Of a stretch of DNA of 64,000 bases, positions 37,985-63,293 are shown in pieces. The DNA comes from an uncultured Pelagibacteraceae bacterium. Its GTDB lineage: Bacteria; Pseudomonadota; Alphaproteobacteria; Pelagibacterales; AG-422-B15. Position numbers and translations under genes: made by a program. Below the pieces are notes generated by a model that was given only the letters and a program-made list of their open reading frames with translations, did not search any database and had not been told where the DNA came from. The stretch lies in the NCBI GenBank assembly GCA_902622985.1, contig CACNSH010000001.1:64036-128035 (forward strand), read 5' to 3'. How positions within the stretch are numbered: position 1 is the first letter of the stretch; each line of letters opens with the position of its first letter.

Positions 37985-39205
37985 TTATTTGACAGGCGCT
38001 TGATCTGAAAGAATAGGCTCTCTTGAAATTCTATTATTAATATTTTCACGAATAATTATATATGAAACAGATATAAAAATACCTAATGCAACTGCAATTA
38101 AATAAGTATAAAGAATTGAAATTTGAGAACTATTTACAATAATTCTGTCTAAATTATATTCAGTTAGAATAGACCTATTTCTATCATCATCTCTTAGTAA
38201 TTTAATTTCATTTATAGCTAAATTTAAAGCCTGATCTTGATTTATGAAATCGTTATACAGCCCTCTATTTAAACGATATTCCACTGACCGAGCCAAAATG
38301 ATAGCCATATCATCGTTATCAGTTATTCTCATATTACTTGTCTTTTCTAGACGATTTTTGCTCTGAATCATTTGCTCATTAAGTATTTTTGTTCCCTGAT
38401 AAAATAATTCTTTATTTGTCATATTTGGTTTTTTCATGCCTGAAGATATTGATGGATCATTTTGTTCTTCTTCCAAGATTTTTAACAAGAATTCATTTTC
38501 ATATAAATAATTTAAGACAGGTTCCTCATAACCCATACTTTTAGCAATGAGATAATTCTCTTCTAATAGCTCAATGTTCTTTTCAATTTGTAATTTCTGA
38601 AATTCGATATCCAAATTTATATTAAAAATCATTTTATTTTTAAGTGTAGCAATATCTCTTTTTATATCTGATTTTTTCTTTTCAAGATAATCAAGCAAAG
38701 TATTAAAAGTATTTAGCTCTGAGCTAGACACTAATTTAGAAAGAATGTTAATACTGTCTTCAGGATCAAATGAATTATGAAAAATATATTTTCCTATTTC
38801 ATTTTCTTCATTTACTTTTAAATCTCGGTATTCAAGCGAAATAAACATATCTCTGGGTAAAATAGACTTCTTAATTTTTTCATTAAAAGTGTCATAAACG
38901 ATTAAAAATTTACTATAATCAAGGTAATTATTTTTCTGTAATTTGAAAAGACTATCAGGAGAGTAATCGATTTGTTCCAGGGTCTGGATTGTTTGAGGAG
39001 AGAATATGAAATTTATATTATTATTTTCTCTAATTTCTAGTTCAGTAGAAAAAGATTTTGTCTTATATGAGTTTAAAATTAAATTACATATTATTGATAT
39101 TAAAATAAATAATATTATTATTTTATAATTTCTAATTAATAATATTAAATATTTAGTTATATCAATATCGTCTCTTGAATAACTAAAATCAATTTGATTA
39201 CTCAT
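37985..39205 (-). CDS. Wzz-like polysaccharide co-polymerase (chain-length determinant), tentative
   Basis: An N-terminal and a C-terminal TM helix flank a long coiled-coil-rich soluble region. DIDITKYLILLIRNYKII resembles the Wzz N-motif. Based on topology and context. Confidence 0.4.
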   Translation of the reverse strand: MSNQIDFSYSRDDIDITKYLILLIRNYKIIILFILISIICNLILNSYKTKSFSTELEIRENNNINFIFSPQTIQTLEQIDYSPDSLFKLQKNNYLDYSKFLIVYDTFNEKIKKSILPRDMFISLEYRDLKVNEENEIGKYIFHNSFDPEDSINILSKLVSSSELNTFNTLLDYLEKKKSDIKRDIATLKNKMIFNINLDIEFQKLQIEKNIELLEENYLIAKSMGYEEPVLNYLYENEFLLKILEEEQNDPSISSGMKKPNMTNKELFYQGTKILNEQMIQSKNRLEKTSNMRITDNDDMAIILARSVEYRLNRGLYNDFINQDQALNLAINEIKLLRDDDRNRSILTEYNLDRIIVNSSQISILYTYLIAVALGIFISVSYIIIRENINNRISREPILSDQAPVK

Positions 39206-39291: not shown

Positions 39292-41181
39292 CTAAGTAAT
39301 TTTGGCTTTAAGCATTTGAAGTAACTCTTTATCACTATTATTATCGATTAATATCGATATTTCTTTAAGCATTTTTTCCAATTCTGGAAAAGGAATAAAT
39401 TTTTCTTTTTCTATCATTATTGGTTTATCATCTGTTAATACATTTTCTTTACCATCAATACTTTCAAAAAATAACTCCTCGTGAATTTTTTCACCTTTTC
39501 TCAATCCAATATACTTTATTTCTATATCTCCATCTGGAAATTCATTTGATTTTTCTTTTAATCCAGAAAAAGAAATCATTTTTTTTGCAATATCGAGAAT
39601 TTTTACAGGCTTACCCATTTTAAGAACGAAAACTTCACCACCCTTACTTATATACATTGAATATAAAACTAGAGATACTGCTTCAGGAATTGTCATAAAA
39701 TATCGGGTTACATCTGGATGTGTGATTGTTATGGGTCCGCCCTGATTAATTTGATTTCTAAAAAGTGGTATAATAGAACCAGAAGAATTTATTACATTTC
39801 CAAACCTGACCATTGAAAGTGTGGGGGCTTTTTCTCTTAAATTATCTGAGTAAGCTTGGACCAAAAGTTCTGAAAGTCTTTTTGTTAATCCCATAGCGCT
39901 TGTGGCTCTGACTGCCTTGTCAGTTGATATTAGTAAAAATTTTCTGATTTTATATTTAATACCTGCTTCTATGACATTTTTTGTTCCATAAACATTATTT
40001 ATCACAGCCTCAATGATATTTTCTTCCACTATTGGTAAGTGTTTATAGGCTGCAGCGTGAAAAACAAGATTGGGCAGGTGCTCTTTAAAAACAATTTCAA
40101 GTCTGTTTAAGTTAACAATGTCTACTAACTTTGAAACAACTTCAGTATTTTGATCATTACTTTTTTGAATTGAATTTATTTTATTTGTAATGCTGTAAAG
40201 ATTAAACTCACTATTATCAACTAATATCAGTTTTTTAGGATGATGAACCAATACTTGCTTACAAATTTCTGAACCAATTGAACCACCCGCGCCTGTTACA
40301 AGAATAACAGAGTCTTGAATCTCATTTTTTGTTTCGTTTGAATCAATTTTTGAATCTCTTTCAAGTAATTCATCTAATCCTACATCCAGAAAATCTTCAT
40401 ACAAAACTTTATTATTTATTAAAGTTTCTAATCCCGGGAGAATTTTAATTTTTACTCGTAAATCTGAAAAATAATTTATTATTTTTCTCTTCGCATAAAT
40501 ATTGATACTAGGAATGCATAATAATATTAAGTTTATATCATTTTTAATTATAAGTTTCTTAGCTTTTTGAATGGGAATGATATCTATATTATCAATTTTA
40601 AGTCCTTGTTTTTTTTTATCATCATCAATAAAGTATAAAATCTTATAATTGCTATTTTGTGATATTGAGTTATAAAATTGTAAACCCGCGCTCCCAGCTC
40701 CATAAATGATTATTGACTTTTGATTATTTGATCCTGCAAAGGAAAAAATGTTTCTTATCGAAAGTCTTACAAAAATAATCATTGAAAAAAAAATTAATGG
40801 TTGAAGAATTGATATTGATCTTGGTACACCATAAGGTGCAAGGTAAATGAGAATTATTGATGTAATAAGTATGATCGAGAAACTTGCTAAAGCGATCTGA
40901 ATTAAACTGTTTAAATTTAAATATTTAGTAATTGAATTATATACTTTAAAGAAATAAAAAAAAATAGAAGTGACGCACAAGAATATCATGAAAACAGTAA
41001 TTTGCTCATTACTGGGCGATGACAAAAAAGATGAAATTTGATGAGTGTGATCTAGAAGAAAGAAAAAAGCTAGCCATGTGCTTGAAAGATTAATTAATAT
41101 ATCAATACTAATTAATAGAGATATCTTATTTATTCTAGATATCTCATCAATTTTTTTTAGTATACTTATTTTCTTTATCAT
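39292..41181 (-). CDS. Membrane-anchored NDP-sugar 4,6-dehydratase (CapD/PglF/WbpM family)
   Basis: 4 N-terminal TM helices. VILVTGAGGSIGSE, FHAAAYKHLPIVEEN, LISTDKAV, RFGNVINSSGS, TRYFMTIPEA. Confidence 0.88.
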   Translation of the reverse strand: MIKKISILKKIDEISRINKISLLISIDILINLSSTWLAFFFLLDHTHQISSFLSSPSNEQITVFMIFLCVTSIFFYFFKVYNSITKYLNLNSLIQIALASFSIILITSIILIYLAPYGVPRSISILQPLIFFSMIIFVRLSIRNIFSFAGSNNQKSIIIYGAGSAGLQFYNSISQNSNYKILYFIDDDKKKQGLKIDNIDIIPIQKAKKLIIKNDINLILLCIPSINIYAKRKIINYFSDLRVKIKILPGLETLINNKVLYEDFLDVGLDELLERDSKIDSNETKNEIQDSVILVTGAGGSIGSEICKQVLVHHPKKLILVDNSEFNLYSITNKINSIQKSNDQNTEVVSKLVDIVNLNRLEIVFKEHLPNLVFHAAAYKHLPIVEENIIEAVINNVYGTKNVIEAGIKYKIRKFLLISTDKAVRATSAMGLTKRLSELLVQAYSDNLREKAPTLSMVRFGNVINSSGSIIPLFRNQINQGGPITITHPDVTRYFMTIPEAVSLVLYSMYISKGGEVFVLKMGKPVKILDIAKKMISFSGLKEKSNEFPDGDIEIKYIGLRKGEKIHEELFFESIDGKENVLTDDKPIMIEKEKFIPFPELEKMLKEISILIDNNSDKELLQMLKAKIT

Positions 41182-41729
41182 TAGTGGCTGATATCGTCTG
41201 ATTTGAATATTTTAAATATAGTAAAAAGTAGAATATAGGTATTTAATTTAAAACTTTTATTTTTTAAATAATATTTTTCTTCTTCTACTTTTTGTTCTAC
41301 TGATAAGCTATCTCTTCCATTCACTTGTGCTAGTCCAGTAATTCCAGGCTTCTGCATATGGATACTATGTAATGTCCTTAATTTAATTAAATCATTCTGA
41401 TTAAATAATGCAGGCCTTGGACCTATAAAATTCATTTTACCATTTAAAATACAAAAAAGCTGAGGTAATTCATCTAAAGATGTTTTTCGAAGAAAGTAAC
41501 CAAATTTAGTTGTGTAATTTTCATTGTTTTTTAAAAGATGTGTTGCTTTTTGAGGTGTATTATTTTTCATTGTTCGAAACTTAGGCATTAAAAAAATTTG
41601 ATTTTTTCTACCTACTCTTTTTGACCAATGAACAACTGGCAAACCTGAAGATAAAATTACGATCATTGAAACTAAAAGTAACATTGGGGATAGTAATATT
41701 ATTAGAAATAATGAAAAAATTTTATTCAT
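41181..41729 (-). CDS. Small monotopic phosphoglycosyltransferase (PglC/WbaP C-domain family, initiating sugar-1-P transferase)
   Basis: Re-entrant helix, then KFRTM, LDELPQL, GPRP motifs. Start set at MNKIFSLF (ATG 41729), which removes the overlap with the upstream GT4 that the ORF-track start (41804) creates. Confidence 0.85.
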   Translation of the reverse strand: MNKIFSLFLIILLSPMLLLVSMIVILSSGLPVVHWSKRVGRKNQIFLMPKFRTMKNNTPQKATHLLKNNENYTTKFGYFLRKTSLDELPQLFCILNGKMNFIGPRPALFNQNDLIKLRTLHSIHMQKPGITGLAQVNGRDSLSVEQKVEEEKYYLKNKSFKLNTYILLFTIFKIFKSDDISH

Positions 41730-41743
41730 AGTAATTAATAGTT

Positions 41744-42859
41744 TCAAAGTTTTTCTATGGCATTCATATACACATCTAAAGTTTTTTTTGCACAATTTTC
41801 CCATGTAAATTTTTTTGCTTGAATAATTCCCTTATCTACAAGAGTTTTTCTAAAATTTTTGTCTGAACCAAGTTTAACAATATTTGAAGAAAGTTCGCTT
41901 TTACTATTCATGTTATTCATTAGTATGCATGCATCACCTGCCACTTCTGGTATTGAACTGCCGTTAAAAGCTATCACAGGGCACCCAGATGACATTGCCT
42001 CCAGTACAGGAAGGCCAAATCCCTCGTACAATGAGGTATATACTAGCACATGTGCATGATTGTATAGATAAGAAAGCAATTGATCGCTACCTGAAATGAA
42101 AAATATTTTTTTCTTTAAGTTCTTTCTTTTTATAAGTTCGTTTTCATACTTTGATAATTTTTCTCCTCCAAATAATACTAAGTTATAGTTATTATTTATT
42201 ATTTCAGAATTCATATATGTATCAAATAAGTAAGAAAAGTTTTTATATCCATATCTTTGGCCTACATATAAAATATAATTTCCATAATTATTTTCATATT
42301 CAGTTTGATTGTCTATTTTTTTAAAAATATTAGAGTCAACTCCTAAGTGAATAACACTTATTTTATTTTCATGAATATTAAATTGATTTATCAAATCTTT
42401 TTTTGTTGAATGTGATATACATATGATTTTGTCTGCGATTGTGCAAGCCTTTAGCTTCTTGGAAGAAACGTGTTTTGAGTCTTTAAAAAAATTCGGATAA
42501 ATTTCATGCGTCATATCATAAACTGTAATAACATTTTTTGATGATTTAGTTGAACTTGATCCTGAAATTACTGAATAGTAGGTCTTATGTAATATATCGT
42601 AATGAGATGACTTAATAAATAAATGATCAATAATCATATTGATATATTTAAGTAATCTTATGATTATTCTCGACTTAGTATTTATCTTAAATCCAAGCAC
42701 ATAATCTTTTGTGCGGATCAATTCATTAATATATAATAATGATATAATGTCTGCATTAACTTCTAATTTATTTAGTTCCATTGCAAGATAATAAAAATAC
42801 TTAGAGATTCCTCCATATTTTTGGGCGGTGAAAATCTGATAATCATATTTAATTCTCAT
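41744..42859 (-). CDS. Glycosyltransferase family 4 (GT-B)
   Basis: C-terminal EX7E region [19 protein letters not shown]. Confidence 0.8.
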
Positions 42860-42873
42860 ATTTTTTTAGACCT

Positions 42874-43968
42874 TTAATTTTGATTATCTTTATAAGCAAT
42901 AATGCATGCTAACAAAACTAATGGCGATGCATTTGGAGAATAAATACTTGTAATTAGGAAGACTGTAAAAAATAATTTCAGATTTCCCGGACCAGAAAAT
43001 TTTAAAAAATAATAAATATATATAAGTCCAAATACACCAAATGTTCTCATAAAAGTTATTGGCGCAGACACAGCGAGCTTACCGCCAAGCGGTTCAAATA
43101 AATCTGGTTCAAACAAATATCCGAGAGGGTACACTAAAAAACTTTTTAGTGAAAACAATATCCCTTCAATTCTTCCTCCATCCAGTAAAAATAAAATTTG
43201 AAATGTATCGGTATTTTTATCAATTAGTGTTTCTAGCAAATAATCTATCTTGTATTGGTTAAAATCAGGTAGAGGGAAAATTTGGTAAAATATAAATATA
43301 AGATAAGCTGTTATAGTGAATAATAAAATTCTAATGGGAAAATTAATAAATAAAAAACCAAAAATCATAAAATATCCACTTGTAGATCTGATTAAAACTA
43401 GCTCCATTATTAACAACACAGTAAATGGTATAAATAATTTATTTTTAATCTTTGGGCCGTATGCAATTAAGTAAGAAATTAATGCATAAAAACTTGCCCT
43501 TGATGCCTCAGAATAAAATAAAGAAGCACCTCTATATGCCTGACCCTGAGTCAGACTTCCTTTACTAAATAAAAATGAAAATTGATCATTAAATTGAGCT
43601 AAAACATTCGTATTTTGAATAATGGACAAAAAAAACAATAGCCAGAAAAAAATTTTAGCAAATTGTCTTATTTCAGAATAGATCTCCCTACTTGAAATGA
43701 TCCATAAACCTGCGAGAAATGTTAAAAAAACTAATGTATATTTAAATAATAATAAATTAATTCCATATTGAAATATTCCCTGAATAAAAAAAATAAGGGG
43801 AAATAATAAACCTATAATTATAAGGTTCGTTTTATAATTTGGCTTTATATACAGCAATCCATAGGGTAATGCCTCGGTTCTAATTTGAACTGTTCTTATT
43901 TGATCACTCACTATGGATGCTAAAAAAGTTGGCGTAAATAATAAGAAATACTTAAAAAATATTTTCAT
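42874..43968 (-). CDS. Polytopic membrane protein, candidate Wzy-type O-unit polymerase
   Basis: About 10 TM helices, no catalytic motif recognised. Called from location among the GT genes only. Confidence 0.35.
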   Translation of the reverse strand: MKIFFKYFLLFTPTFLASIVSDQIRTVQIRTEALPYGLLYIKPNYKTNLIIIGLLFPLIFFIQGIFQYGINLLLFKYTLVFLTFLAGLWIISSREIYSEIRQFAKIFFWLLFFLSIIQNTNVLAQFNDQFSFLFSKGSLTQGQAYRGASLFYSEASRASFYALISYLIAYGPKIKNKLFIPFTVLLIMELVLIRSTSGYFMIFGFLFINFPIRILLFTITAYLIFIFYQIFPLPDFNQYKIDYLLETLIDKNTDTFQILFLLDGGRIEGILFSLKSFLVYPLGYLFEPDLFEPLGGKLAVSAPITFMRTFGVFGLIYIYYFLKFSGPGNLKLFFTVFLITSIYSPNASPLVLLACIIAYKDNQN

Positions 43969-43972
43969 AAAA

Positions 43973-44854
43973 TTAAATATTGTTTTTTGAGAGAATTTGA
44001 CTTCTTACAGTAAGCAATTCCTCTAATTTAAATTCTCTATATTTTTTTGAAACATTAAAGTTTAAATCGTCAATTTTTTCTAGTCTTTCTTCGTATTGAG
44101 TAAAGTTACAGTCTTTTAAAATCTTAATTAATTCATTGTGACGAATTCTATTTTGAAAATGATTTGGTGGATTAAAAAAAAACCAATGAAAAGAATTATA
44201 TTTTAAGAAATTTACTGGTGACAGATGTTTAAAAGTGTGAGAGTAGTGATCGGAATAATCAACACATGATATGAGAAGTCCATCTTTTTTTATTAAAGTT
44301 TTTAAATTTTTAAATATTTTATATAAATTTTTTTTTGGAATGTGCTCAATGGTATCTTTAGAGATGCAAACGTCAAATTTTTCTTTGGTTAAAAAAGAAG
44401 AAATGTCTAATGGAGCAAGGTAATCGATTTTTAATAAGTTGAGTAGTTCCTTCATATTATTAAAATTATTCATGGGCTTCTTGTTTAAAAGCTTACAAAT
44501 TTGATAATATGCTTGTAGCGTTAGTTTTTCGTTTAACATTGGATTGAGGTCAACAACTGACTGTCTTAACTTTTTGTGCGATAGAGCTAAATAAATATTT
44601 TGCGCAAGATTCCTTCCTGCTCCAAATTCTAACAATTTAATATGATTATCAGAGTTCAATTTGTTAATTTTCTCCAAGATAAAAAGCCAGTCTGAATCAA
44701 GTGTTAAAATTTTTTTCGATGAACGATTTGTGATATTGTGCTGTAAAAAAAATAAAATTTTTCTAGGAAGAAAAGATAAAATCCAAAAAGCAATAACCTT
44801 CAATTTCCAATTCTCTTCAATCAACTGTGAAAAAATTTTTATTATTCTAAACAT
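43973..44854 (-). CDS. Class I SAM-dependent methyltransferase
   Basis: Motif I LLEFGAGRN and post-motif DTIEHIP. Confidence 0.5.
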   Translation of the reverse strand: MFRIIKIFSQLIEENWKLKVIAFWILSFLPRKILFFLQHNITNRSSKKILTLDSDWLFILEKINKLNSDNHIKLLEFGAGRNLAQNIYLALSHKKLRQSVVDLNPMLNEKLTLQAYYQICKLLNKKPMNNFNNMKELLNLLKIDYLAPLDISSFLTKEKFDVCISKDTIEHIPKKNLYKIFKNLKTLIKKDGLLISCVDYSDHYSHTFKHLSPVNFLKYNSFHWFFFNPPNHFQNRIRHNELIKILKDCNFTQYEERLEKIDDLNFNVSKKYREFKLEELLTVRSQILSKNNI

Positions 44855-45650
44855 TTCTTCCAGTATAATACCTAAATCTTAAAAAAATCCATCTACAAGA
44901 GATCAAGAAAATATGTCCAAAAGAAATCACTAAAGAATTAATTTTACCCCACTTAAATTTGTCTATTAAAATTTTACGCAATTGAAAAATTGATAACATT
45001 TTTTTTTGATAATGCTCGGAAACATTTTGTACGTTATAAACATAGTTTACTTCATTAATAAAAATTATTTCAGGCTTTAAATTTAAAATATCTTTCCAAT
45101 ATACCCAGTCTTCTTTCTTACCTTCATAAAAACTCACTTTTTTTGCAAGTTTAGTTGAAAGAATTATGCTACCTAGCATGAATGGATTTACAATATTTTG
45201 CATTGTAATTGGAAAAAGGGGAACTCTAATTAAATTTATGTTTTTTGAAAAATTTATATAAGTTTGGCCGACTATCATAAAGTTTTCAGTTTTGATTTCT
45301 GATTGAATTTTTGAGACAAGATTTACCGCATTTTCTAAAAAGCTGTCTCCTGCGTCAATGAATATTACAAAACTATTGGGATTGTCAGTGATGAAGGATA
45401 GTCCGGTATTTCTGGCAATTGATCTTGAAGCAATTGGATTTATGTTGCAAATTTCATATTGATAATTTTTTGTTTTTTCAAAATTAATTTTAGGATTACA
45501 GTCATTATTAAAAATTAATATATGATTAAAGTTTAAACTATTGACTAAACCTGCTACATTGCGAACACTACTCAACGTATCGTAAAGTCCATCAGCTGAA
45601 CCTACTGGGGTTATTATATTAATAGTATTTTTAAGATCACCTTTTACCAT
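44847..45650 (-). CDS. Glycosyltransferase family 2-like
   Basis: N-terminal INIITPV..., Asp-containing FIDAGDSF block. Weak call. Confidence 0.5.
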   Translation of the reverse strand: MVKGDLKNTINIITPVGSADGLYDTLSSVRNVAGLVNSLNFNHILIFNNDCNPKINFEKTKNYQYEICNINPIASRSIARNTGLSFITDNPNSFVIFIDAGDSFLENAVNLVSKIQSEIKTENFMIVGQTYINFSKNINLIRVPLFPITMQNIVNPFMLGSIILSTKLAKKVSFYEGKKEDWVYWKDILNLKPEIIFINEVNYVYNVQNVSEHYQKKMLSIFQLRKILIDKFKWGKINSLVISFGHIFLISCRWIFLRFRYYTGRNV

Positions 45651-46789
45651 AGAGGTGAGTTTAGGACATTTTCTTTGTTAAAATTAGCCTTAGTGGTATT
45701 TGCTAGCAATCGAATATCATCAATCAAATTATTATTTAATGTAATTGGTTGAAAACCTAAACTTTTTAATCCATCATTTGAGACCTCAAGATCATTTTTT
45801 TCCAATTCTTTTCTCGGATTTTTCAAATAATTAATTTTCGAACCGTATTGATCAGAGATAATTTTTGCAATTTCATCTACAGACAAAATTTCTGAAACTT
45901 GATTAAAAATTCTTACTTTAGTTTTATCAAATTTATCATTTTCTATAGCGAGCTTTATGCACTCTGCGGTATCACTTATATGAATAAAAGCTCTTTTTTG
46001 ACCACCAATACCGTAAACTGTAAGTGGATGGTTATTCACGGCTTGAGTAATAAATCGGTTTAAAACAGTTCCATAAATGCCATCATAATCGAATCTATTT
46101 ATTAAAAAATTTGATTTTTTTGTCTCCGGCGTTTCAATTCCCCAAACAATCCCTTGATGAAGATCTGTTATTTTTAATCCCCAATTTTTGTTATAATATT
46201 GAAATATTAATTGGTCTAAACTTTTTGTTAAATGATAAATACTTCCTGGGTTTGTAGGATATAGAATATCAATATTTTTATTTGTATCAGGGATATTTAT
46301 ATTCAAATACCCTTCTGGTATCTTTCCTAGTTCCTTTGAGTACCCATAAACACCCATAGTTCCTAAGTGAATTAGATGTATATCTTTATTAGTTTCAACT
46401 ATTGCTGAACATACATTATGAGTGCCAGTTATATTGTTCTCAATTGTATACCTTCTTTGCTTATCGCCCATCATAGAATATGGAGCAGATCTTTGTTCAG
46501 CAAACTGTATTATACTTTGTGGTTGAAAATCAGAAATTATATTTTTAAGTTTTTTCGATTCTTTTGATATATCAATATTCTTATATTTTATATTTCCGAT
46601 TAGTTTGTTAGCTACATCGATTCTTTTTTCTAATGAGCTTATTTCAGTTAAGCTTGATGATGATAATTCTTTATCAATATTCCTTCTTGACAGATTATCA
46701 ATTATTAATATTTCGTATCCAGATGCTGCAAGCCTTAAACTAGTAGGCCATCCACAGAAACCATCCCCTCCAAGTACTATTATTTTCAT
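45644..46789 (-). CDS. sqdB: UDP-sulfoquinovose synthase homologue (SQD1/SqdB/Agl3 family SDR)
   Basis: Near-diagnostic blocks shared with plant SQD1: GGDGFCGW (SQD1 GGDGYCGW), FAEQRSAPYSM, HLGTMGVYG, catalytic Y-H-x-x-K in SIYHLTKS (SQD1 FYHLSK), TDLHQGIVWG, RFDYDGIYGTVLNRF, HPLTVYGIGGQKR, NPR-E near the C-terminus. The 381-aa length matches the family. Confidence 0.8.
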   Translation of the reverse strand: MKIIVLGGDGFCGWPTSLRLAASGYEILIIDNLSRRNIDKELSSSSLTEISSLEKRIDVANKLIGNIKYKNIDISKESKKLKNIISDFQPQSIIQFAEQRSAPYSMMGDKQRRYTIENNITGTHNVCSAIVETNKDIHLIHLGTMGVYGYSKELGKIPEGYLNINIPDTNKNIDILYPTNPGSIYHLTKSLDQLIFQYYNKNWGLKITDLHQGIVWGIETPETKKSNFLINRFDYDGIYGTVLNRFITQAVNNHPLTVYGIGGQKRAFIHISDTAECIKLAIENDKFDKTKVRIFNQVSEILSVDEIAKIISDQYGSKINYLKNPRKELEKNDLEVSNDGLKSLGFQPITLNNNLIDDIRLLANTTKANFNKENVLNSPLW

Positions 46790-47544
46790 TCCTTAATTAT
46801 TTTATAATTTCTTAATTTTGCCATTGTAATAAAGTAAAGTTTCTTTGAAACAAAAAAACTATAAATATATTTTAAACATTCAATTATAAATCTTATAAAT
46901 TTTTCATATCTTAGTTTTATGTAAATTATATACAAGGTTGGATATGTTGATTGCCCACCTAATTTAAATTTAGCAAGGATATCCTGAGAATAGTAAATAT
47001 CATATTTATTTATATTATTATTCATCCAATCATTATCTGCGGAGACTTTAAGCAATTCATTAAAAAAAATTCTTTTTTCGTTAGGAGCAAAAAAACCTTG
47101 ATGTGGTGGTAAGTTTTTTTCAAGACCAAGACCAAAGAAACCTTTTTTTGGAACATTTTCTCTAATAATTGATATATTTTTATACACTTGTAATGTTTTA
47201 AAGCTATAACATTTCTTATCTCTTATATTTGAGTCTGCAAGTTCTAAACTCTCAGGACCACTAAATACGTCTCCAGCGTTCATAAACAAAATAAATGAGC
47301 CATTTGATTTTCTTATCCCGACATTCATTGCATTGAACAACGAGTTATCTATGTCCCAATAAAACTTTCTAAACTCTTTTGAGTATTGGTTTAATATCAG
47401 ACTTTTATCTTTATCTGAAAATGAAGATAATACTAAAATATTTTCATACGGCTTTAAAGATTGCATGTCTATAGAGTCTAATGTCTCAAATAGCTCATCT
47501 AAATTATTATGAGCAATAGTTATTATTGACAAATTATTTTTCAT
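46786..47544 (-). CDS. Glycosyltransferase family 2
   Basis: LSIITIAHNNLDELFETLDSIDMQS N-terminal GT-A motif and FMNAGD block. Confidence 0.6.
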   Translation of the reverse strand: MKNNLSIITIAHNNLDELFETLDSIDMQSLKPYENILVLSSFSDKDKSLILNQYSKEFRKFYWDIDNSLFNAMNVGIRKSNGSFILFMNAGDVFSGPESLELADSNIRDKKCYSFKTLQVYKNISIIRENVPKKGFFGLGLEKNLPPHQGFFAPNEKRIFFNELLKVSADNDWMNNNINKYDIYYSQDILAKFKLGGQSTYPTLYIIYIKLRYEKFIRFIIECLKYIYSFFVSKKLYFITMAKLRNYKIIKE

Positions 47545-47545
47545 A

Positions 47546-48349
47546 TTAAATGCCTAAATTTTTTTTTAGAATAATGTGTTTAAAGTTATAATCAGATTTT
47601 TTAATGGATTTATGTACATGAAAAGATGGATTATTAAAGTTAAAAACGCATTGATAATTTTGTTCATTCATAAATTTAATAAATTTATCATACGAGATAA
47701 ATTGATTTGGAAAAATAGATGGCTTCATATTTACTTGCAATACATAATAGTCTTCGTATGAATAATTAAAAACAGTATCGGCAATAATGATGTATTCAGG
47801 TTCAAATGATAAGATCATTTTTTTAATAAGATTTTTATAATTTGGCAAATATTGTAATGATGAACCAAAATAAACAATATCTATGTTTTCTTGCTTTATT
47901 TGATCTAATTCATGAAAATAAATAACATTGTTTTCTTTATTTTTTGGAACAACATCTTTAATTTTTTCAACAAATTCTTTTCTTTCATATATCCAAGATT
48001 TAATGACTTTGTTTGTTAAACCATTAATAAATTCATATATAGGTGGATTTCCACCGCCAACATCTAAAATTTTAATTTCTTTATTGCTTAAAATACTAAT
48101 AATGAGTGGGAGAATAATATTTCTGTCAATACTATTAAATTTTATTTTTTCTTTATAGTTAATAGTATTTTTATCATCATATGTATCATTTAAATATTTT
48201 GATATATTTGAATTATTTTTTTTTAAGTCATCAAGATTCTTATATTGATCTACAAAGGTAATATCTTGTTTATTAATTGAATTACTTATCTCAAACAATT
48301 TCAATTTTGAAAAAATAATAACTAAAAATTTTTTAATACAATTTTTCAT
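47546..48349 (-). CDS. Putative SAM-dependent methyltransferase (LIC12133/TIGR04325-like), tentative
   Basis: ILDVGGGNPP motif I and FGSSLQYLP block. Confidence 0.4.
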   Translation of the reverse strand: MKNCIKKFLVIIFSKLKLFEISNSINKQDITFVDQYKNLDDLKKNNSNISKYLNDTYDDKNTINYKEKIKFNSIDRNIILPLIISILSNKEIKILDVGGGNPPIYEFINGLTNKVIKSWIYERKEFVEKIKDVVPKNKENNVIYFHELDQIKQENIDIVYFGSSLQYLPNYKNLIKKMILSFEPEYIIIADTVFNYSYEDYYVLQVNMKPSIFPNQFISYDKFIKFMNEQNYQCVFNFNNPSFHVHKSIKKSDYNFKHIILKKNLGI

Positions 48350-49569
48350 TACTTTTCTAGTAAATTTACATAATCCTTAATATATTTACATGCGATTTCT
48401 TTCCATGAGTAGTTTTGTTTTGCTTTCATGGCAGCATTATTTGAAAATTTTAATCTTAAATCTTTATTTAAAAGAATAGAAATTTTTTCTGAGAGGTCAT
48501 CAACTGAATCTTTCCTGAATAAAAAACCACAATCCATTACTCTTTCTGGTGTTCCAATCTCATCGTTTAGTATTAATGGTAAGCCACAAGCAAGTGCATC
48601 AAGCTGACTTGTACTTTCTTGTGATGGCCATATGCCTATATCTGAGATTCTATAATATTTGGGTAAGTTTTTATATTCCTGAAACTTTATTACTTTGGTA
48701 AATTGATTTTCAAGTTTCTTTTTATATTTTTTAGTTCCATCACCTATAAATAAACCTCTAACATTTCTAAAACCATCATAATTTAATTTAGATATTGCCT
48801 CTGAAAGAAGGTGAGGTTTTTTCGACTCATCCAATCTGCCAGTGTAAATACAAATTATATCGTGTAGTTTAAAACCAAGCTTCTTCTTTAAATCGTTATT
48901 TCGTTGTAAGTCGTTATTAAATAAGTCTACATTTGTACCAAGCTTCATTATTTTGGTTTGTTTGCTTTTATACCCTAAATAATTAATAGCTATAAACTCG
49001 GAGTCTTGACTTATAGGATAACACCTTTTAACTTTTGTTGAAATTATCTTTGAAATATAAAAATAAAACAACTTCTGCTTTAGCTTTCTGATAAAAAATT
49101 TAATTCTATTTTTAATATTTTTATTTTTATATATTTGATTAAATTTTTTTGCTGCATTATATACTGATAAATGAATATGACATTCAACTGTAATGATATA
49201 GTCCAGAAAAAAACTATAGATATATACTTGAAAAAGTAGAAAACTATTTGCTTCTCCAACTTGAATTATTTCGGGTTTTAACTTTTTTAATAGAGGAAAT
49301 AATCCAAAAAAAAACAAGCCGAATGGAGATTTAATACTATTCAATCTATACAAATGGTACCCATTTACTTTTTTATAATCGTAGTTTTTATCACTTTCTG
49401 AGTGAAAGTTCCTATAAACATCGCCGTAATTTCTTTGATTGTAATTAGCTTTAAATTTGGATGAAATAACACTTACTTCGTGAGATAATGATGATAAGCT
49501 GTAAGATAAACATACATCTGAATATCCCATATTCTCACTGTGATGGTCAACAAGTTGAACGATTTTCAT
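48349..49569 (-). CDS. Glycosyltransferase family 4 (GT-B)
   Basis: C-terminal region WPSQESTSQLDALACGLPLI resembles the GT4 EX7E motif. Confidence 0.65.
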   Translation of the reverse strand: MKIVQLVDHHSENMGYSDVCLSYSLSSLSHEVSVISSKFKANYNQRNYGDVYRNFHSESDKNYDYKKVNGYHLYRLNSIKSPFGLFFFGLFPLLKKLKPEIIQVGEANSFLLFQVYIYSFFLDYIITVECHIHLSVYNAAKKFNQIYKNKNIKNRIKFFIRKLKQKLFYFYISKIISTKVKRCYPISQDSEFIAINYLGYKSKQTKIMKLGTNVDLFNNDLQRNNDLKKKLGFKLHDIICIYTGRLDESKKPHLLSEAISKLNYDGFRNVRGLFIGDGTKKYKKKLENQFTKVIKFQEYKNLPKYYRISDIGIWPSQESTSQLDALACGLPLILNDEIGTPERVMDCGFLFRKDSVDDLSEKISILLNKDLRLKFSNNAAMKAKQNYSWKEIACKYIKDYVNLLEK

Positions 49570-49631: not shown

Positions 49632-50378
49632 ATGAATATCTTAGTTTTTGCTTCAAAACTTGTTGGCTGTAAATGTGTTGAGTTTCTTCTTAAAGAACAC
49701 ATGAATGACAATTATACATTTGTCATTACTGAAAAAAATGATGAAAAATTAAAAGCACTACTAGTTAATAGTGGTCAAAATTTCTACGAAATTGATAACT
49801 TTAATGATCATTTAAATAACGATGAGTCTTTTGATTGGATCTTGAACTTATGGGGGGGGCTTATTTTAGAAAGTAGATTATTGAGTAAAGCTAAAAATAA
49901 TTTAAATATTCATCCCTCTATGCTGCCTCATGCCAGAGGAAAAGATCCAATTGTGTGGACTATTCAAAATAATTTTCCAGCTGGAACTACACTTCATGAA
50001 ATGACTAGTAAAATTGATGCTGGCGATATCTTTTATCAACAAGAGCTTGCATATTGTATGCCTATCAAAGGCTTGGAGCTTTATGATCAAATTTTAAAAC
50101 ATAGCGTTAATGTTTTCAAAAATAATTGGTCAAACATAAAAAACAATCCAAAGAAATTTAAAATTGATTATGAAAAACATCAACTATTTCTTAGAAAACA
50201 TTTAATTAATAATCAAACAAAAGATTTCTCTGATGAAACAATAAATAAAACGCTATTATGGCTTCTGTCGCATGATTTCACAAAAAAAGAGGATCAAAAA
50301 AAAGGTAAGTACGGTGCTCAGGTTATTATTAACAATAAAGTATATATTGCTACATTGAGTCTTGAAGAGAAAAATTAA
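49632..50378 (+). CDS. Sugar N-formyltransferase (Fmt/ArnA N-domain-like)
   Basis: Formyl_trans_N signature NLNIHPSMLPHARGKDP and SKIDAGDI. This is the only + strand gene in the island. Confidence 0.75.
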   Translation: MNILVFASKLVGCKCVEFLLKEHMNDNYTFVITEKNDEKLKALLVNSGQNFYEIDNFNDHLNNDESFDWILNLWGGLILESRLLSKAKNNLNIHPSMLPHARGKDPIVWTIQNNFPAGTTLHEMTSKIDAGDIFYQQELAYCMPIKGLELYDQILKHSVNVFKNNWSNIKNNPKKFKIDYEKHQLFLRKHLINNQTKDFSDETINKTLLWLLSHDFTKKEDQKKGKYGAQVIINNKVYIATLSLEEKN

Positions 50379-51472
50379 AGTAAACTATTAATTATTTGTG
50401 AAATTTTTTTTACTTCTCTAGATTTCAACTCTGGATACATTGGTAAAGTAATTACCTGATTGCAAATAGAATTAGTAATACTTAAATTTGAATTTTTAAA
50501 TTTACAAAATTTTTGGTAACCGTTATGTTTATGTGCTGGAAGAGCATAGTGAATGCCGCAATATATGCCCTCTTTTTTCAACTTATTTAGATATAAATCT
50601 CTTTTTTTAGTTTTTAAAACAAATAAGTGATATACGTGTTTACACCCTTCTCTCGACTTTATAAATTGAAATTCAGGATTATTAATTGACGAACGGTATA
50701 GCTTAGCAAGATTTATTCTCTTTTTATTTTCAAGTTCCAAATATTTTAATTTGACATTTAAAATTGATGCTTGCAATTCATCGAGTCTTGAGCTTTGTCC
50801 ATGCTCCAAAGTTGATCTATTTTTATCCCATCCGAACTGTCGTGAACGTGATATTTTATTTGCGATTTGTTTATTATTTGTAGTTACCATCCCACCATCT
50901 CCAATAGCTCCAAGATTTTTTGTAGGATAAAAACTAAATGCGCCAACATGCCCTATAGAACCAACTTTTTTTCCAAAATATTCTGCTCCAACTGCTTGGG
51001 CACAATCTTCAATAACGTATAGTTTATTTTCTCTCGCAATTTTCATTATCTTGTTCATGTCACAGACTTGCCCATAAATATGAACTGGAATTATTGCCCT
51101 CGTTTTTTTTGTAATTGCCCTACTTATTTTATGAGGGTCAATTGTTAAAAAGTCTTTTTCCAAATCTACTATAACAGGTTTAGCTCCGCTTGAGATAATA
51201 GCTGACAAAGTAGCTAAAGCTGTATGGGAAACGGTTATAACTTCATCTCCAGAACCTATATTCAAAGCTTTTAAACTTAATAAGATTGCGTCTGTACCAC
51301 TATTAACTCCAACCGAATACTTAACGTTACAAAATTTTGAAAACGAATGTTCGAAATCTTTTACTTGATCGCCTAATACATAATTACCAGATTTCAGTGT
51401 CTTAGAGATAGAGTCGTTTATTTCTTTCTTATGGGCTTGAAATTGTGCAAAAGGGTATGAGGCGAAAAACAT
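50375..51472 (-). CDS. DegT/DnrJ/EryC1/StrS family sugar aminotransferase
   Basis: IEDCAQAVGA and the PLP-lysine block FSFYPTKNLGAIGDGGMV. Confidence 0.9.
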   Translation of the reverse strand: MFFASYPFAQFQAHKKEINDSISKTLKSGNYVLGDQVKDFEHSFSKFCNVKYSVGVNSGTDAILLSLKALNIGSGDEVITVSHTALATLSAIISSGAKPVIVDLEKDFLTIDPHKISRAITKKTRAIIPVHIYGQVCDMNKIMKIARENKLYVIEDCAQAVGAEYFGKKVGSIGHVGAFSFYPTKNLGAIGDGGMVTTNNKQIANKISRSRQFGWDKNRSTLEHGQSSRLDELQASILNVKLKYLELENKKRINLAKLYRSSINNPEFQFIKSREGCKHVYHLFVLKTKKRDLYLNKLKKEGIYCGIHYALPAHKHNGYQKFCKFKNSNLSITNSICNQVITLPMYPELKSREVKKISQIINSLL

Positions 51473-52701
51473 TAAAAAATTTCAACTTTAGGGACAAATC
51501 TAATCCATTTGCCGCCATTCTTTTCAAAATCTTTTTCTTTTTCAAATATTTCATTTGAATGATTCCAAGCAAATAGCAGGGCATAGTCTGGTGGATTTTT
51601 TTTAAATTCCTCATATGACCTTACGGGGATATGGGCACCAGGTGAATATTTATTTTGCTTTAGTGGTGTTGTATCTGAGATAAATTCAATTAAATCATTT
51701 CCAATCCCAGAATAATTTAAAATTGTGGTACTTTTTGAGGTGGCACCATATCCAACAACTCTTTTTTTCTCTGATTTAATTTTTTCTAAGAGAGATACCA
51801 AATCTTTTTTTGATTGTTCACAATTATTTTTAAAACGAATATACGTTGTAGGATCCTTAAATCCATTTTTTTCTTCATTTTCTAGTATCTGGTGTACATT
51901 CTTTGAAATTTTATGACTACCTTTATGAGTTATGAAATATCTCATGGAACCACCATGAGTCGGCTGGGGAATCACGTCAATCAACTCCAGATCATGCCTC
52001 TCACACAATGATGATACTGATGAGGCTGAAAATATATATATATGCTCATCATAAATTTGATCATATGACACTTTTTCTAACATATCTCCAAGATAAGGGT
52101 CTTCAAAAGCTAGGATACCATCCTCTGTAAGTAGTTTTGCAATACCAGCAAAAACACTATTAAGGTCAGGAATATGGCACATCACATTAGCTGCAAAAAT
52201 TATATTAGCTTTTCCATGTTTCTCTAGGATATGATCAGCTAAATTTTCATTAAAAAATTCTGATATTGTATTTATGCCCTCTTTTTTTGCAACATCAGCA
52301 ACATTTTTAGATGGCTCGATACCTAGATGAGGTATTCCAGAATTCTTAAAATGTTTAAGCATAATTCCATCATTACTTCCTAGTTCTATAACAAATGAAT
52401 CTTCTTTTGTTCTCAAAAAATTTGAAATTAACTGATCAGCAAAATTTTTAAAATGAACTTGCATATGCTTAGATAAACTTGAAAAAAATGGATAATTTTC
52501 ATTAAACATCATTGGTGCATCAGGTTGATCAATCAATTGAAAAGCAAAACAGTTCTCGCAAAACGAGGGTTTCATTTCAAAAAAATATTCATTTTTAAAA
52601 TCTATTTCATTTAAAAAACCATTTGCAATAGGCATTTTACCAAAGCTCATAAATGGAGAAATTTCGTTACCACACACTCTACAAGTATTGCTGCTGTTCA
52701 T
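51472..52701 (-). CDS. NDP-hexose C-methyltransferase (TylCIII/TcaB9-like)
   Basis: N-terminal 4-Cys zinc module (CRVCGN...CENC), SAM motif VIELGSNDG, and a long C-terminal domain as in sugar C3-methyltransferases. Confidence 0.75.
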   Translation of the reverse strand: MNSSNTCRVCGNEISPFMSFGKMPIANGFLNEIDFKNEYFFEMKPSFCENCFAFQLIDQPDAPMMFNENYPFFSSLSKHMQVHFKNFADQLISNFLRTKEDSFVIELGSNDGIMLKHFKNSGIPHLGIEPSKNVADVAKKEGINTISEFFNENLADHILEKHGKANIIFAANVMCHIPDLNSVFAGIAKLLTEDGILAFEDPYLGDMLEKVSYDQIYDEHIYIFSASSVSSLCERHDLELIDVIPQPTHGGSMRYFITHKGSHKISKNVHQILENEEKNGFKDPTTYIRFKNNCEQSKKDLVSLLEKIKSEKKRVVGYGATSKSTTILNYSGIGNDLIEFISDTTPLKQNKYSPGAHIPVRSYEEFKKNPPDYALLFAWNHSNEIFEKEKDFEKNGGKWIRFVPKVEIF

Positions 52702-52734
52702 ATTATCTCAATCATTAAATAATTTTAATATCTT

Positions 52735-53613
52735 TTATGTGTCGTTTAATATTGACCTTAAATAAGTTGCATAGTCAACTTCTTTATAATCAGAAATTAA
52801 TTTTTCTAATTCTTCACTAGAAATAAGGCCCATCCTCCATGCAACTTCTTCTGGGCAACCAATTTTTAGGCCTTGCAATTCTTCTACTGTTTGAACGAAC
52901 TGTGAGGCTTTTAAAAGATTCTCATTGGTACCAGCATCAAGCCATGCGTATCCACGACTAAATTTATAAACTTCAAGATTTTTATTTTCTAAATATATTT
53001 GATTAACTTCTGAAATTTCTAATTCACCTCTGCCAGATGGTTTTATTTCTTCAGCAATCTTCACTATATCTTGATCGTAAAAATATAAACCAGTGATTGC
53101 CCAATTTGAAATAAAGCTTTTTGGTTTCTCAACAATTCTCTTAGGAGTATCATCATTAAAAAATTCACAAATCCCAAAATTCTCTGGATCATTTACGTAA
53201 GAGGCAAATAATGTAGCCCTATTGTGATTTGAGGACTTATTTAGTAATAATTCCGAGAAACCTGATCCATAAAAAATATTATCACCTAAAATTAACGCAC
53301 AACTATTTTCTCCAATAAATTCTTTTGCAATGATAAATGCTTCAGCAATTCCTTTTGGTTCCATTTGTACTTTATATTCTAAGTTTATTCCAAATTTAGA
53401 ACCATCTCCTAAAAGATTCTTGAAATTTTCGATACTTTCAGAGGTAGTTATTATAAGAATATCTTTTATTCCTGCTAAAAGTAGGGTCGTTAAAGGATAA
53501 TAAATCATAGGCTTATTAAAAACAGGCAGTAATTGTTTACAAACTGGGATTGTCACAGGCCAGAGCCTACTGCCTGTTCCACCTGCTAAGATTATGCCTT
53601 TTCTTAAATTCAT
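52735..53613 (-). CDS. rmlA: Glucose-1-phosphate thymidylyltransferase
   Basis: KGIILAGGTGSRLWPVT, LGDNIFYG, RGELEISEVN, WLDAGT motifs. Confidence 0.92.
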   Translation of the reverse strand: MNLRKGIILAGGTGSRLWPVTIPVCKQLLPVFNKPMIYYPLTTLLLAGIKDILIITTSESIENFKNLLGDGSKFGINLEYKVQMEPKGIAEAFIIAKEFIGENSCALILGDNIFYGSGFSELLLNKSSNHNRATLFASYVNDPENFGICEFFNDDTPKRIVEKPKSFISNWAITGLYFYDQDIVKIAEEIKPSGRGELEISEVNQIYLENKNLEVYKFSRGYAWLDAGTNENLLKASQFVQTVEELQGLKIGCPEEVAWRMGLISSEELEKLISDYKEVDYATYLRSILNDT

Positions 53614-54596
53614 ATAACTTGCTGAAGATACCAGGGATTTTCTTTAGCCCACATTATTGTTTTTCTAATACCAATATTTACTTGAATTTTTGCTTTCCAG
53701 CCAAGTAATTCATAAGCCTTTTCACAATTTGGAATACGATTAATAATATCTTGATAAACATCTCCATATAAATCGTTTGTATTTATATTATTAATTTCAA
53801 TATTTTTTTTTGACTCTTTAATACATAAATTAACGATATCTTTTATTTTTGTAGGGACTTGATTACCAATATTGAATGCTTTTCCATCAGCCTTTGAAAG
53901 TTCTCCTACTCGAATAATACCATCAATTGCATCATCTATATATGTAAAGCATCTTATTTGCTCACCTCCATCATATATATCTGGAGGAATATTATTAAGA
54001 ACCCTATAAACTGATTGAGATACAACAAATATAGGATTTTGTTTTGGTCCGTAAACATTGAAAAATCTAACGGTTGCAAAGTTAAGTTTATTCGTCCTGT
54101 ATAAGGCAAATAACATGTGCTCTATGAGAGCTTTACTAGAGGAATAACACCATCTATCTACACTTGGGTCACCAAGAACTCTGTCAGACTCTTCCTTCCA
54201 AGGTACATTTGAATTTTTTCCATAAACCTCACTGGTACTTGCAAAAATTAATTTTATATTTTTTTTAATACATAGCTCTATAATATTCTTGGTTCCATTT
54301 ATTGTAATATCAATTAACGATAATGGATCTCGCATGTAATATCTGACGCCTACAGTTGACGCTAAATGATAAATAATCTCAGCATCGTCTTGAAAGAAGT
54401 TTTGGATGTCTTCCATATTTCTAATGTCACCTTTAAAAAAATGTAAATTTTTATGATCAATCATTTCTTTTAAATTTAAGCAATCATTTAAAAGTCTATT
54501 GTCAAAAGCGTATACATCATATCCTCTTGAAAGTAACTTTTCTACTAAATGGCTTCCTATAAAACCTCCGGCACCAGTTACCATTACTTTTTTCAT
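53610..54596 (-). CDS. Extended SDR resembling the ArnA decarboxylase domain / UDP-glucuronate decarboxylase
   Basis: VTGAGGFIGSH, ASTSEVYG, YSSSK, RFFNVYGP, GGEQIRCFTYIDD, and an ArnA-like C-terminal block LYGDVYQDIINRIP. Confidence 0.6.
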   Translation of the reverse strand: MKKVMVTGAGGFIGSHLVEKLLSRGYDVYAFDNRLLNDCLNLKEMIDHKNLHFFKGDIRNMEDIQNFFQDDAEIIYHLASTVGVRYYMRDPLSLIDITINGTKNIIELCIKKNIKLIFASTSEVYGKNSNVPWKEESDRVLGDPSVDRWCYSSSKALIEHMLFALYRTNKLNFATVRFFNVYGPKQNPIFVVSQSVYRVLNNIPPDIYDGGEQIRCFTYIDDAIDGIIRVGELSKADGKAFNIGNQVPTKIKDIVNLCIKESKKNIEINNINTNDLYGDVYQDIINRIPNCEKAYELLGWKAKIQVNIGIRKTIMWAKENPWYLQQVI

Positions 54597-54598
54597 CT

Positions 54599-56856: not shown

Positions 56857-56858
56857 AG

Positions 56859-57605: not shown

Positions 57606-57606
57606 A

Positions 57607-59145: not shown

Positions 59146-59149
59146 GATT

Positions 59150-61368: not shown

Positions 61369-61373
61369 AGAGT

Positions 61374-63286: not shown

Positions 63287-63293
63287 TATATAT

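Follow-up and report, generated by a model that had tools for sequence, protein, structure and literature searches.

A UDP-sulfoquinovose synthase homologue in a surface-glycan operon of a SAR11-like bacterium suggests a sulfonated cell-surface sugar

The window analyzed here is a stretch of 64,000 nucleotides from an uncultured Pelagibacteraceae bacterium (GenBank assembly GCA_902622985.1, contig CACNSH010000001.1, positions 64,036 to 128,035). At 45644..46789 on the minus strand, inside a tight surface-glycan operon, it encodes a 381-residue homologue of the SQD1/SqdB family of UDP-sulfoquinovose (UDP-SQ) synthases. We conclude that the gene probably, though far from securely, encodes a functional UDP-SQ synthase from a distinct subfamily shared by bacteria and phages, and that its product would be committed to a surface glycan linked to undecaprenyl phosphate and not to diacylglycerol. 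The arrangement suggests that a SAR11 cell may place a sulfonated sugar on its surface. A sequence-only reading of the same DNA had noticed the SQD1-like gene and proposed a surface polysaccharide or glycoconjugate as the destination of its product; the observation was confirmed by the analyses described here, and the interpretation is supported.

The open reading frame (ORF) is intact from its ATG start to its TAA stop, and the motifs that had been quoted as nearly diagnostic of plant SQD1 were all found in the translation: GGDGFCGW, EQRSAPYSM, LGTMGVYG, YHLTK, TDLHQG, RFDYDGIYGTVLNRF, and HPLTVYGIGGQKR. In a phmmer search of all Protein Data Bank (PDB) sequences, Arabidopsis SQD1 (PDB: 1qrr, 1i24, and 1i2b) was the top match, with 1qrr aligned over residues 2–379 at E = 5.4e-82; the runner-up short-chain dehydrogenase/reductase (SDR) reached only E = 1e-10. 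Judged by sequence, the similarity to SQD1 is far above chance. An AlphaFold (AF2) model of the protein, with a predicted local distance difference test (pLDDT) score of 81 and a predicted template modeling (pTM) score of 0.86, gave a template modeling (TM) score of 0.91 against 1qrr in Foldseek, versus 0.69 for the best non-SQD1 SDR structure. Pfam reported only the generic Epimerase and GDP_Man_Dehyd domains, and the clear best NCBIfam match was NF041015, "UDP-sulfoquinovose synthase", at 339.8 bits compared with 52.8 for GalE. By NCBIfam, PDB sequence, and fold, the protein therefore belongs with SQD1/SqdB and not with the ordinary epimerases and dehydratases.

The NF041015 score lies below the curated equivalog cut-off of 575 bits, which could be taken as a sign that the protein is not a member. 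This explanation was dropped after calibration with the window ORF, SQD1, and the homologues at L029, L074, L038, L002, L015, and L017 (such labels denote individual surveyed loci). Crystallized SQD1 scored 480 bits, two cyanobacterial SqdB proteins scored 351 (L029, with an SqdX-like gene adjacent) and 344 (L074), a Paracoccus homologue scored 338, and the other bacterial or archaeal metagenome-assembled genome (MAG) homologues scored 330–347, all short of the threshold. A cut-off that excludes SQD1 and SqdX-linked cyanobacterial SqdB (344–351) alike cannot discriminate; the model is evidently narrow, and the query scores much like the bacterial SqdB homologues used in the calibration. On the practical side, the NCBI equivalog model overlooks essentially all plant and bacterial members that were scored. 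Members of the query's clade mostly carry generic NCBI epimerase/dehydratase names ("NAD-dependent epimerase/dehydratase family protein"), which a cut-off out of reach would explain, whereas automatic JGI annotation calls them "UDP-sulfoquinovose synthase".

Catalytic residues were checked in an alignment of 115 family members using SQD1 numbering, with substrate-contact residues taken solely from the Agl3 paper and a review cited below. R101, T145, M146, G147, Y149, S180, Y182, H183, K186, Q209, and R327 are all found in the query and are invariant or nearly so across the 115 sequences. His183, which sits beside the catalytic Tyr, has been proposed to act in sulfonation, and the Tyr-His pair occurs in 115/115 aligned sequences, the query included. 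By sequence alignment, the Thr/Tyr/His/Lys catalytic set anticipated by the sequence-only reading is complete. According to a tabulated signature, UDP-SQ synthases carry [ST]MG...Yx3K and 4,6-dehydratases carry [ST]DE or [ST]DK (PMC8987622); the query fits the former through LGTMGVYG and YHLTK. In archaeal Agl3, alanine mutants of the His of VHFxEQR, Arg101, Met145/146, Glu147/148, Tyr148/149, Ser180, and Thr185 are inactive or impaired (PMC4388408). The Arg, Met, Tyr, Ser, and Thr at these positions are kept in the query, and the remaining two are changed, Glu148 to Val and His96 to Gln. Loss of a proposed catalytic acid through the Glu148 substitution was considered and rejected: Val is the state in 114 of the 115 sampled sequences, SqdX-linked cyanobacterial SqdB included, so this position is uninformative.

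The query is 49–57% identical to a broad set of bacterial homologues, cyanobacterial ones among them, and 62–89% identical to more than 100 clusters of ~381-residue marine-metagenome proteins, together with proteins from Neptuniibacter, Amylibacter, Halomonas, Planktomarina, and Luminiphilus. Phylogenies were built by neighbor joining (NJ) alone, in our own numpy implementation, from sequences other than Agl3. In these NJ trees the shorter proteins form a "381-aa clade" separate from both the main SqdB clade (385–412 residues) and plant SQD1; with 176 sequences, bootstrap support was 96/100 for the clade and 94/100 for a SAR11-like subclade within it. Just 11 alignment positions systematically separate the 381-aa clade from the main SqdB clade, none of them within the EQRSAPYSM, TMGxYG, YHxxK, or TDLxQG blocks, and at two of them (W200 and Y256) the clade agrees with the assayed plant enzyme. 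The 90%-identity cluster of the window protein has only 12 members, a small number that fits a strain-variable island. SQD1 homologues were also seen on giant-virus MAG contigs from IMG/VR (GVMAG; L140 2902-3972 and L141 10001-11164); in the NJ tree they branch toward plant SQD1, along with a few other IMG/VR loci, and apart from the bacterial clades.

The host had been surmised to be SAR11-like. The FtsH protein (2250..4163) matches GIR05676.1 of a Pelagibacterales MAG at every residue and is shared by 407 contigs, which identifies the host as a member of the Pelagibacterales. Transketolase and PntB fall in clusters of 640–880 marine members, and the core genes within 1–34 kb encode FolP, FtsH, TilS, YebC, transketolase, GAPDH, PGK, aldolase, PurK, and PntAB. 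GC content is 0.330 in this core (1–34000) and 0.272 in the island that extends from 35215 to the window end; at 0.29, the SQD1-like gene is in line with the island. Fourteen minus-strand genes run from 49569 down to 35215, spaced by overlaps or by gaps of at most 86 nt, and form a tight operon. An ATGA overlap joins the start of the SQD1-like gene to the stop of the gene at 46786..47544, with a Shine-Dalgarno-like AAGGA just before it, and its stop region overlaps the start of the gene at 44847..45650 by 7 nt. The sequence-only reading had described both of these neighbors as glycosyltransferase family 2 (GT2) genes overlapping the ORF. The overlaps exist on both sides and the upstream gene is indeed GT2 (Pfam PF00535, E = 4.6e-8), but the downstream gene has no Pfam match and is only remotely GT2-like. 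Orthologues of the upstream GT2 also lie upstream of the SQD1-like gene in L082 (61% identity, adjacent) and in L084 (36%, with one gene between).

The absence of an SqdX- or SqdD-type lipid partner, on which the proposal of a surface glycan had leaned, holds within the 64-kb window: no SqdX or SqdD orthologue was found there by comparing the window's family 4 glycosyltransferases (GT4s) with SqdX or by Pfam and NCBIfam scans, and the same scans found no GT8 (SqdD-type) protein among the island ORFs. With the cyanobacterial gene adjoining sqdB in L029 as the SqdX query, full-length orthologues at 39–51% identity were recovered in 11 main-clade loci. The two island GT4s were considered as hidden SqdX proteins and discarded, as they show generic GT4 similarity only (23–27%, partial alignments). 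A survey of related genomes placed the same clade within polysaccharide clusters in several lineages. All 9 of the 9 cellular 381-aa-clade loci examined are polysaccharide clusters: the window, L082, L167, Neptuniibacter sp. QD72_48, Luminiphilus syltensis NOR5-1B, Amylibacter kogurei, Paramylibacter ulvae, L168, and L169. Within 10 kb, 5/9 of these loci have a Bac_transf gene, versus 3/78 main-clade loci, and SqdX-like genes are nearby in 0/9 versus 11/78. The SAR11-like islands L082 and L167 are syntenic with the window, and their synthases are 75–76% identical to the query. In L086 (11191-12881; Amylibacter kogurei) and L002 (Paramylibacter ulvae), two Stf0-type sulfotransferases (PF09037), an 895-residue GT4-GT2 fusion, and a GT8 flank the clade member; the sulfotransferases beside the synthase suggest a glycan that is both sulfonated and sulfated.

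The 267-residue protein encoded immediately downstream (44847..45650, minus strand) is closely tied to the synthase. Across 170 loci, relatives of this partner were found directly downstream of the SQD1-like gene in L082, L167, L084 (Neptuniibacter), and L168 and at no other site. When metagenome contigs were scanned with the partner alignment, 15 loci were recovered, and in 13 of these the partner follows an SQD1-like gene at a spacing of −3 to +70 nt. The two exceptions, L182 4001-4738 and L184 4001-4732, have no SQD1-like gene within 4 kb upstream; they are the most distant relatives (27–32% identity), have a GC content of 0.59–0.60, and may represent the ancestral family or a different specificity. 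The family conserves the motifs IITPxG, RSxARNxGL, FxDxGD, and KEDWxYW. The N-terminal 100 residues of the partner match the flanking GT2 family at 93.5% in hhalign, NCBIfam matches the protein to WcaE (E = 2.7e-5), and a transmembrane-like hydrophobic segment occupies residues 239–257 at the C terminus. Because of the linkage, the motifs, the hhalign match, and the hydrophobic end, we infer that the partner is a divergent glycosyltransferase of the GT-A type, and we consider it the foremost candidate for a sulfoquinovosyltransferase.

The remainder of the operon, all on the minus strand, bears out the O-antigen- or capsule-like context seen by the sequence-only reading. The first gene (48349..49569) encodes a GT4 (Pfam Glycos_transf_1) that is not an SqdX orthologue, being 27% identical to cyanobacterial SqdX over the C-terminal half only. 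It is followed by a TIGR04325-family methyltransferase (47546..48349; NCBIfam 83.2 bits, cut-off 80), the GT2, the SQD1-like gene, and the partner. Downstream of these lie a Methyltransf_23 methyltransferase (43973..44854; Pfam E = 1.9e-7), which has a 53%-identical orthologue at the same position in L082, and a polytopic membrane protein with at least six hydrophobic segments (42874..43968), a possible polymerase or flippase with no Pfam or NCBIfam match and a 57%-identical L082 orthologue. A second GT4 (41744..42859; Pfam Glycos_transf_1 and Glyco_transf_4), again not an SqdX orthologue (23%, partial alignment), precedes a small PglC-like polyprenyl-phosphate phosphoglycosyltransferase (41181..41804; Pfam Bac_transf E = 2.3e-51, TIGR03025 192.8 bits), the predicted initiating enzyme, and a PglF/WbpM-type membrane UDP-GlcNAc 4,6-dehydratase (39292..41181; Pfam Polysacc_synt_2 E = 2e-111, plus CoA_binding_3). 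A putative chain-length regulator with Wzz-like topology (37985..39205) has hydrophobic segments at both ends and no family match, and the gene at the same position in L082 matches Wzz weakly. The Wzy_C protein at 36728..37969 (Pfam PF04932 E = 1.8e-19; ~10 hydrophobic segments) is of the O-antigen ligase, polymerase, or O-oligosaccharyltransferase type, and the last gene encodes the UDP-glucose 4-epimerase GalE (35215..36222; TIGR01179 373.5 bits, cut-off 262.3). Between these two lies a 164-residue SET-domain protein (36219..36713; Pfam E = 1.3e-25). The Wzy_C–SET pairing recurs in the syntenic island L082, and a lysine-methyltransferase-type domain is unexpected in a glycan operon.

One cluster thus contains an initiating Bac_transf phosphoglycosyltransferase, a PglF-like dehydratase, two GT4s, two GT2s in addition to the remotely GT2-like partner, a Wzy_C protein, GalE, and sugar-nucleotide tailoring genes, as in a Wzy-type locus for an undecaprenyl phosphate-linked glycan. 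No flippase was recognized in the cluster, and the Wzz assignment comes from topology and the weak match of the orthologous L082 gene only. The rest of the low-GC glycan island (49632..63911), upstream of the operon, was annotated from Pfam and NCBIfam matches. Its sugar genes encode a formyltransferase, two DegT aminotransferases, an RmlA-like nucleotidyltransferase, SDR dehydratases/epimerases, and an FdtA isomerase; a C-methyltransferase, CmcI-like and FkbM methyltransferases, a GT2, two NDP-sugar dehydrogenases, and a UDP-GlcNAc 2-epimerase are also present.

Sulfite supply had been raised as a puzzle by the sequence-only reading, which pointed to the reported lack of assimilatory sulfate reduction in SAR11. 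No sulfite-producing gene was found in the 64-kb window. The puzzle is weaker than first posed, however, as SAR11 has been reported to catabolize 2,3-dihydroxypropane-1-sulfonate (DHPS) by a reconstructed pathway that ends in bisulfite (PMC11131964). SAR11 has likewise been reported to import taurine and to grow on it (PMC7891661), and according to a recent review Pelagibacter scavenges short-chain sulfonates with high affinity (PMC13436972). Sulfite without assimilatory sulfate reduction is therefore plausible.

Elsewhere in the family, sulfur genes lie close to the synthase. A 3′-phosphoadenosine 5′-phosphosulfate (PAPS) reductase (L088 8708-9286) is encoded two genes upstream of a phage-borne synthase with two Sulfotransfer_2 genes alongside, and CysN/CysC (sulfate adenylyltransferase/adenosine 5′-phosphosulfate (APS) kinase; L169 13000-14901) lies 4 kb from the synthase of L169. 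When PAPS-reductase linkage was sought systematically within the 381-aa clade, it was found in L088 only. Six main-clade loci contain uninterrupted ORFs that fuse an N-terminal PAPS/APS-reductase-like (CysH) domain to SqdB (L020 2099-4246, L048 8957-11203, L075 9086-11209, L059 9152-11239, L031 7859-10009, and L057 8237-11212), in hosts that comprise Nocardioides, Nocardioidaceae, Isoptericola, and Gammaproteobacteria; a separate CysH-like ORF adjoins SqdB in main-clade loci L068, L019, and L064. Such a fusion would hand sulfite directly to the synthase. The window core also encodes two inositol-monophosphatase-family proteins on the plus strand (19591..20379 and 31606..32409; Pfam E = 9e-63 and 5e-41); the family includes CysQ-type 3′-phosphoadenosine 5′-phosphate (PAP) phosphatases, and one of the two could relate to sulfur nucleotide turnover.

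In the pathway that we propose, C4 of UDP-glucose would be oxidized by tightly bound NAD+, as in the SQD1/Agl3 mechanism, after which water would be eliminated across C5–C6, sulfite added at C6, and C4 re-reduced to yield UDP-6-deoxy-6-sulfo-glucose. The sulfite would probably come from catabolism of organosulfonates such as DHPS and taurine rather than from sulfate reduction, and the operon GalE could supply or balance UDP-glucose. The small phosphoglycosyltransferase at 41181..41804 would start the glycan on undecaprenyl phosphate with a PglF-derived sugar, and the flanking, translationally coupled GT2-like enzymes would build on it, with the 267-residue partner most likely acting as the sulfoquinovosyltransferase. 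Processing of the glycan would then fall to the Wzz-like and Wzy_C proteins, and the acceptor may be lipopolysaccharide, capsule, or protein.

Several points speak against the proposed pathway. Our literature searches returned no bacterial sulfoquinovose-containing polysaccharide. The partner has no Pfam match, a Pfam scan of 11 members of its family gave nothing relevant, and its AlphaFold model (pLDDT 54) was too poor to use, leaving the glycosyltransferase fold unconfirmed by structure. The window, L082, and L167 are syntenic and therefore not independent observations. Where SQD1 has His96, the query and 24/35 sampled clade members have Gln (His in 11/35). The contig is at least 321 kb long and the window spans 64 kb of it, so an sqdX or sqdD gene could possibly lie elsewhere. 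This last point also favors one alternative: a true UDP-SQ synthase whose product goes to sulfoquinovosyldiacylglycerol (SQDG) under phosphate stress, through unlinked sqdX or sqdD or through a promiscuous SAR11 GT4 (GTcp/Agt), so that the island position is incidental. In some cyanobacteria sqdX lies apart from sqdB (PMC13436972), and GTcp of Pelagibacter HTCC7211 takes UDP-Glc, UDP-Gal, and the C6-anionic UDP-GlcA (PMC8231724); it might use UDP-SQ as well. We nevertheless regard a lipid destination as quite improbable. Translational coupling ties the synthase gene to its GT2-like neighbors on both sides, the partner almost exclusively adjoins an SQD1-like gene, and the clade sits within polysaccharide clusters of unrelated taxa, with SqdX adjacent in none of the nine cellular loci. 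As replacement lipids of marine heterotrophs, the GTcp paper gives monoglucosyl- and glucuronosyl-diacylglycerol (MGlc-DAG and MGlcA-DAG), and it ascribes SQDG to cyanobacteria and phytoplankton (PMC8231724). Finally, a rare, strain-variable island (~12 cluster members versus the 407 contigs that carry the identical FtsH) is an odd location for a membrane-lipid gene.

The chemistry itself could also have changed, with the SQD1 scaffold and its oxidation and dehydration steps kept but no sulfite added, so that the enzyme would release UDP-glucose-5,6-ene or a 4-keto-6-deoxy intermediate, or would accept another C6 nucleophile. The clade is well separated (96% NJ bootstrap), and the reported lack of assimilatory sulfate reduction in SAR11, to which the sequence-only reading pointed, fits such a change. 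Agl3 supplied with no sulfite yields UDP-glucose-5,6-ene (PMC4388408; PMC8987622), and the His96-to-Gln substitution hits the residue equivalent to Agl3 "His95" in the VHFxEQRSAP motif, whose Ala mutant is inactive (PMC4388408). On the other side, His183 and the other key residues listed above are invariant or nearly so, and the few clade-separating positions avoid the conserved motif blocks. In the NJ tree, clade members with His96 are scattered among those with Gln, which suggests that His and Gln are interchangeable at this position; the substitution stays a caveat. Sulfur-activation genes lie near clade members (the PAPS reductase of L088, CysNC of L169, and sulfotransferases in L086 and L088), and ordinary 4,6-dehydratase-type SDRs are already encoded in the island. 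A change of function is, in our estimate, unlikely, although it deserves to be kept in mind. That the gene is a recently acquired passenger, or is decaying with no role in the cell, has very little to recommend it: the low-GC hypervariable island and the related genes on phage-like contigs would suit such an origin, but the frame is full length and intact, AAGGA precedes the start, both ends overlap the neighboring genes, and the GC content is like that of the island. Moreover, a SAR11-like subclade of ~75–99% identity retains the same neighbors, which implies long residence under selection. Synthesis of UDP-SQ for a surface glycan remains the reading that we prefer.

Members of the 381-aa clade 60–65% identical to the window ORF were also seen on phage-like IMG/VR contigs of up to ~150 kb (L087 10001-11146, L088 10001-11146, and viral loci L089–L166). 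They lie in a conserved cassette in which the synthase is joined by an FkbM methyltransferase, two GT25 genes, and between two and four paralogous proteins with weak similarity to GT8; PhoH, RNaseH, and ribonucleotide reductase (RNR) genes are nearby. By RNR, the closest isolates to the cassette-bearing backbones are Phage C48C1 and the OM43 myophage Melnitz; pelagiphages are farther away. Isolated phage genomes (INPHARED) gave no synthase match at E < 1e-30, which leaves metagenomes as the only source of phage carriers. The literature describes one Mu-like virus that encodes a putative UDP-SQ synthase (PMC7785012).

A broader picture, which we hold as possible rather than probable, is that sulfoquinovose is more than a lipid headgroup of phototrophs, that a dedicated UDP-SQ synthase clade with its own GT-A transferases adds this C-S-bonded sugar to surface glycans in abundant marine heterotrophs (SAR11, OM60/Luminiphilus, Roseobacter relatives, and Neptuniibacter), that phage cassettes make sulfoquinovosylation a strain-variable determinant of phage–host interaction, and that these cells are an unrecognized heterotrophic source of sulfoquinovose, with the sulfite in SAR11 drawn from sulfonate catabolism. 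Sulfoquinovose is among the most abundant organosulfur compounds, and hypervariable islands are thought to govern phage susceptibility. A 2026 review of aquatic sulfoquinovose cycling names phototrophs as the producers and Pelagibacter as a consumer of downstream sulfonates only (PMC13436972), and we found no paper tying SAR11 to sulfoquinovose synthesis in the literature searched. If the proposal is true, SAR11 and other heterotrophs would form a new guild of sulfoquinovose producers, and a cell deficient in sulfate reduction would need to steer sulfonate-derived sulfite into biosynthesis. It would also mean a strongly anionic, phosphorus-free surface modification tied to hypervariable islands, which fits the occurrence of the clade in myophage-like glycan cassettes.

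The enzyme chemistry is known from other systems; the subfamily and its use for a bacterial surface glycan appear to be undescribed. Like Arabidopsis SQD1, the query has the GxxGxxG NAD site and TMG...YHxxK including His183, together with Arg101, Gln209, and Arg327, and it shares Trp200 and Tyr256 with the plant enzyme, unlike the main bacterial clade. It differs from SQD1 in overall identity (~39–45%), in Glu148 to Val and His96 to Gln, and in lacking a transit peptide; SQD2 channels the plant product into SQDG, whereas the query gene sits in a polysaccharide operon. The bacterial SqdB proteins, which work with SqdX in cyanobacteria, Firmicutes, and Actinobacteria and with SqdD/SqdC in Cereibacter, belong to the same family as the query, with 49–57% identity and equal NF041015 scores. 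In contrast to those of the SQDG pathway, with their 385–412 residues, the query clade is ~381 residues long, branches separately (96% bootstrap), and lies near Bac_transf, PglF-like, Wzy_C, and GT2 genes. RmlB, GalE, and PglF, as extended SDRs, share the Rossmann-type fold and Tyr-x3-Lys chemistry, but they have no TMG and Tyr-His signature and match the query at E = 1e-10 or weaker and a TM score of at most 0.69; GalE, PglF-like, and RmlB-like genes are separately encoded in the same island.

By analogy, archaeal Agl3 is the closest functional precedent. In Sulfolobus acidocaldarius it is encoded among glycosylation genes and feeds the N-glycan of S-layer and archaellin (PMC4388408), that is, it makes a sulfoquinovose donor for a lipid-carrier-linked surface glycan instead of a membrane lipid, as the window gene would. 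Most residues that matter in Agl3 by mutagenesis (the Arg, Met, Tyr148 equivalent, Ser180, Tyr182, and Lys186) are kept in the query. Agl3 differs in being archaeal and specific for an N-glycan, and the equivalents of its "His95" and Glu147 are Gln and Val in the query. If the surface-glycan reading is correct, the operon described here would provide a bacterial counterpart to the archaeal Agl3 N-glycan.

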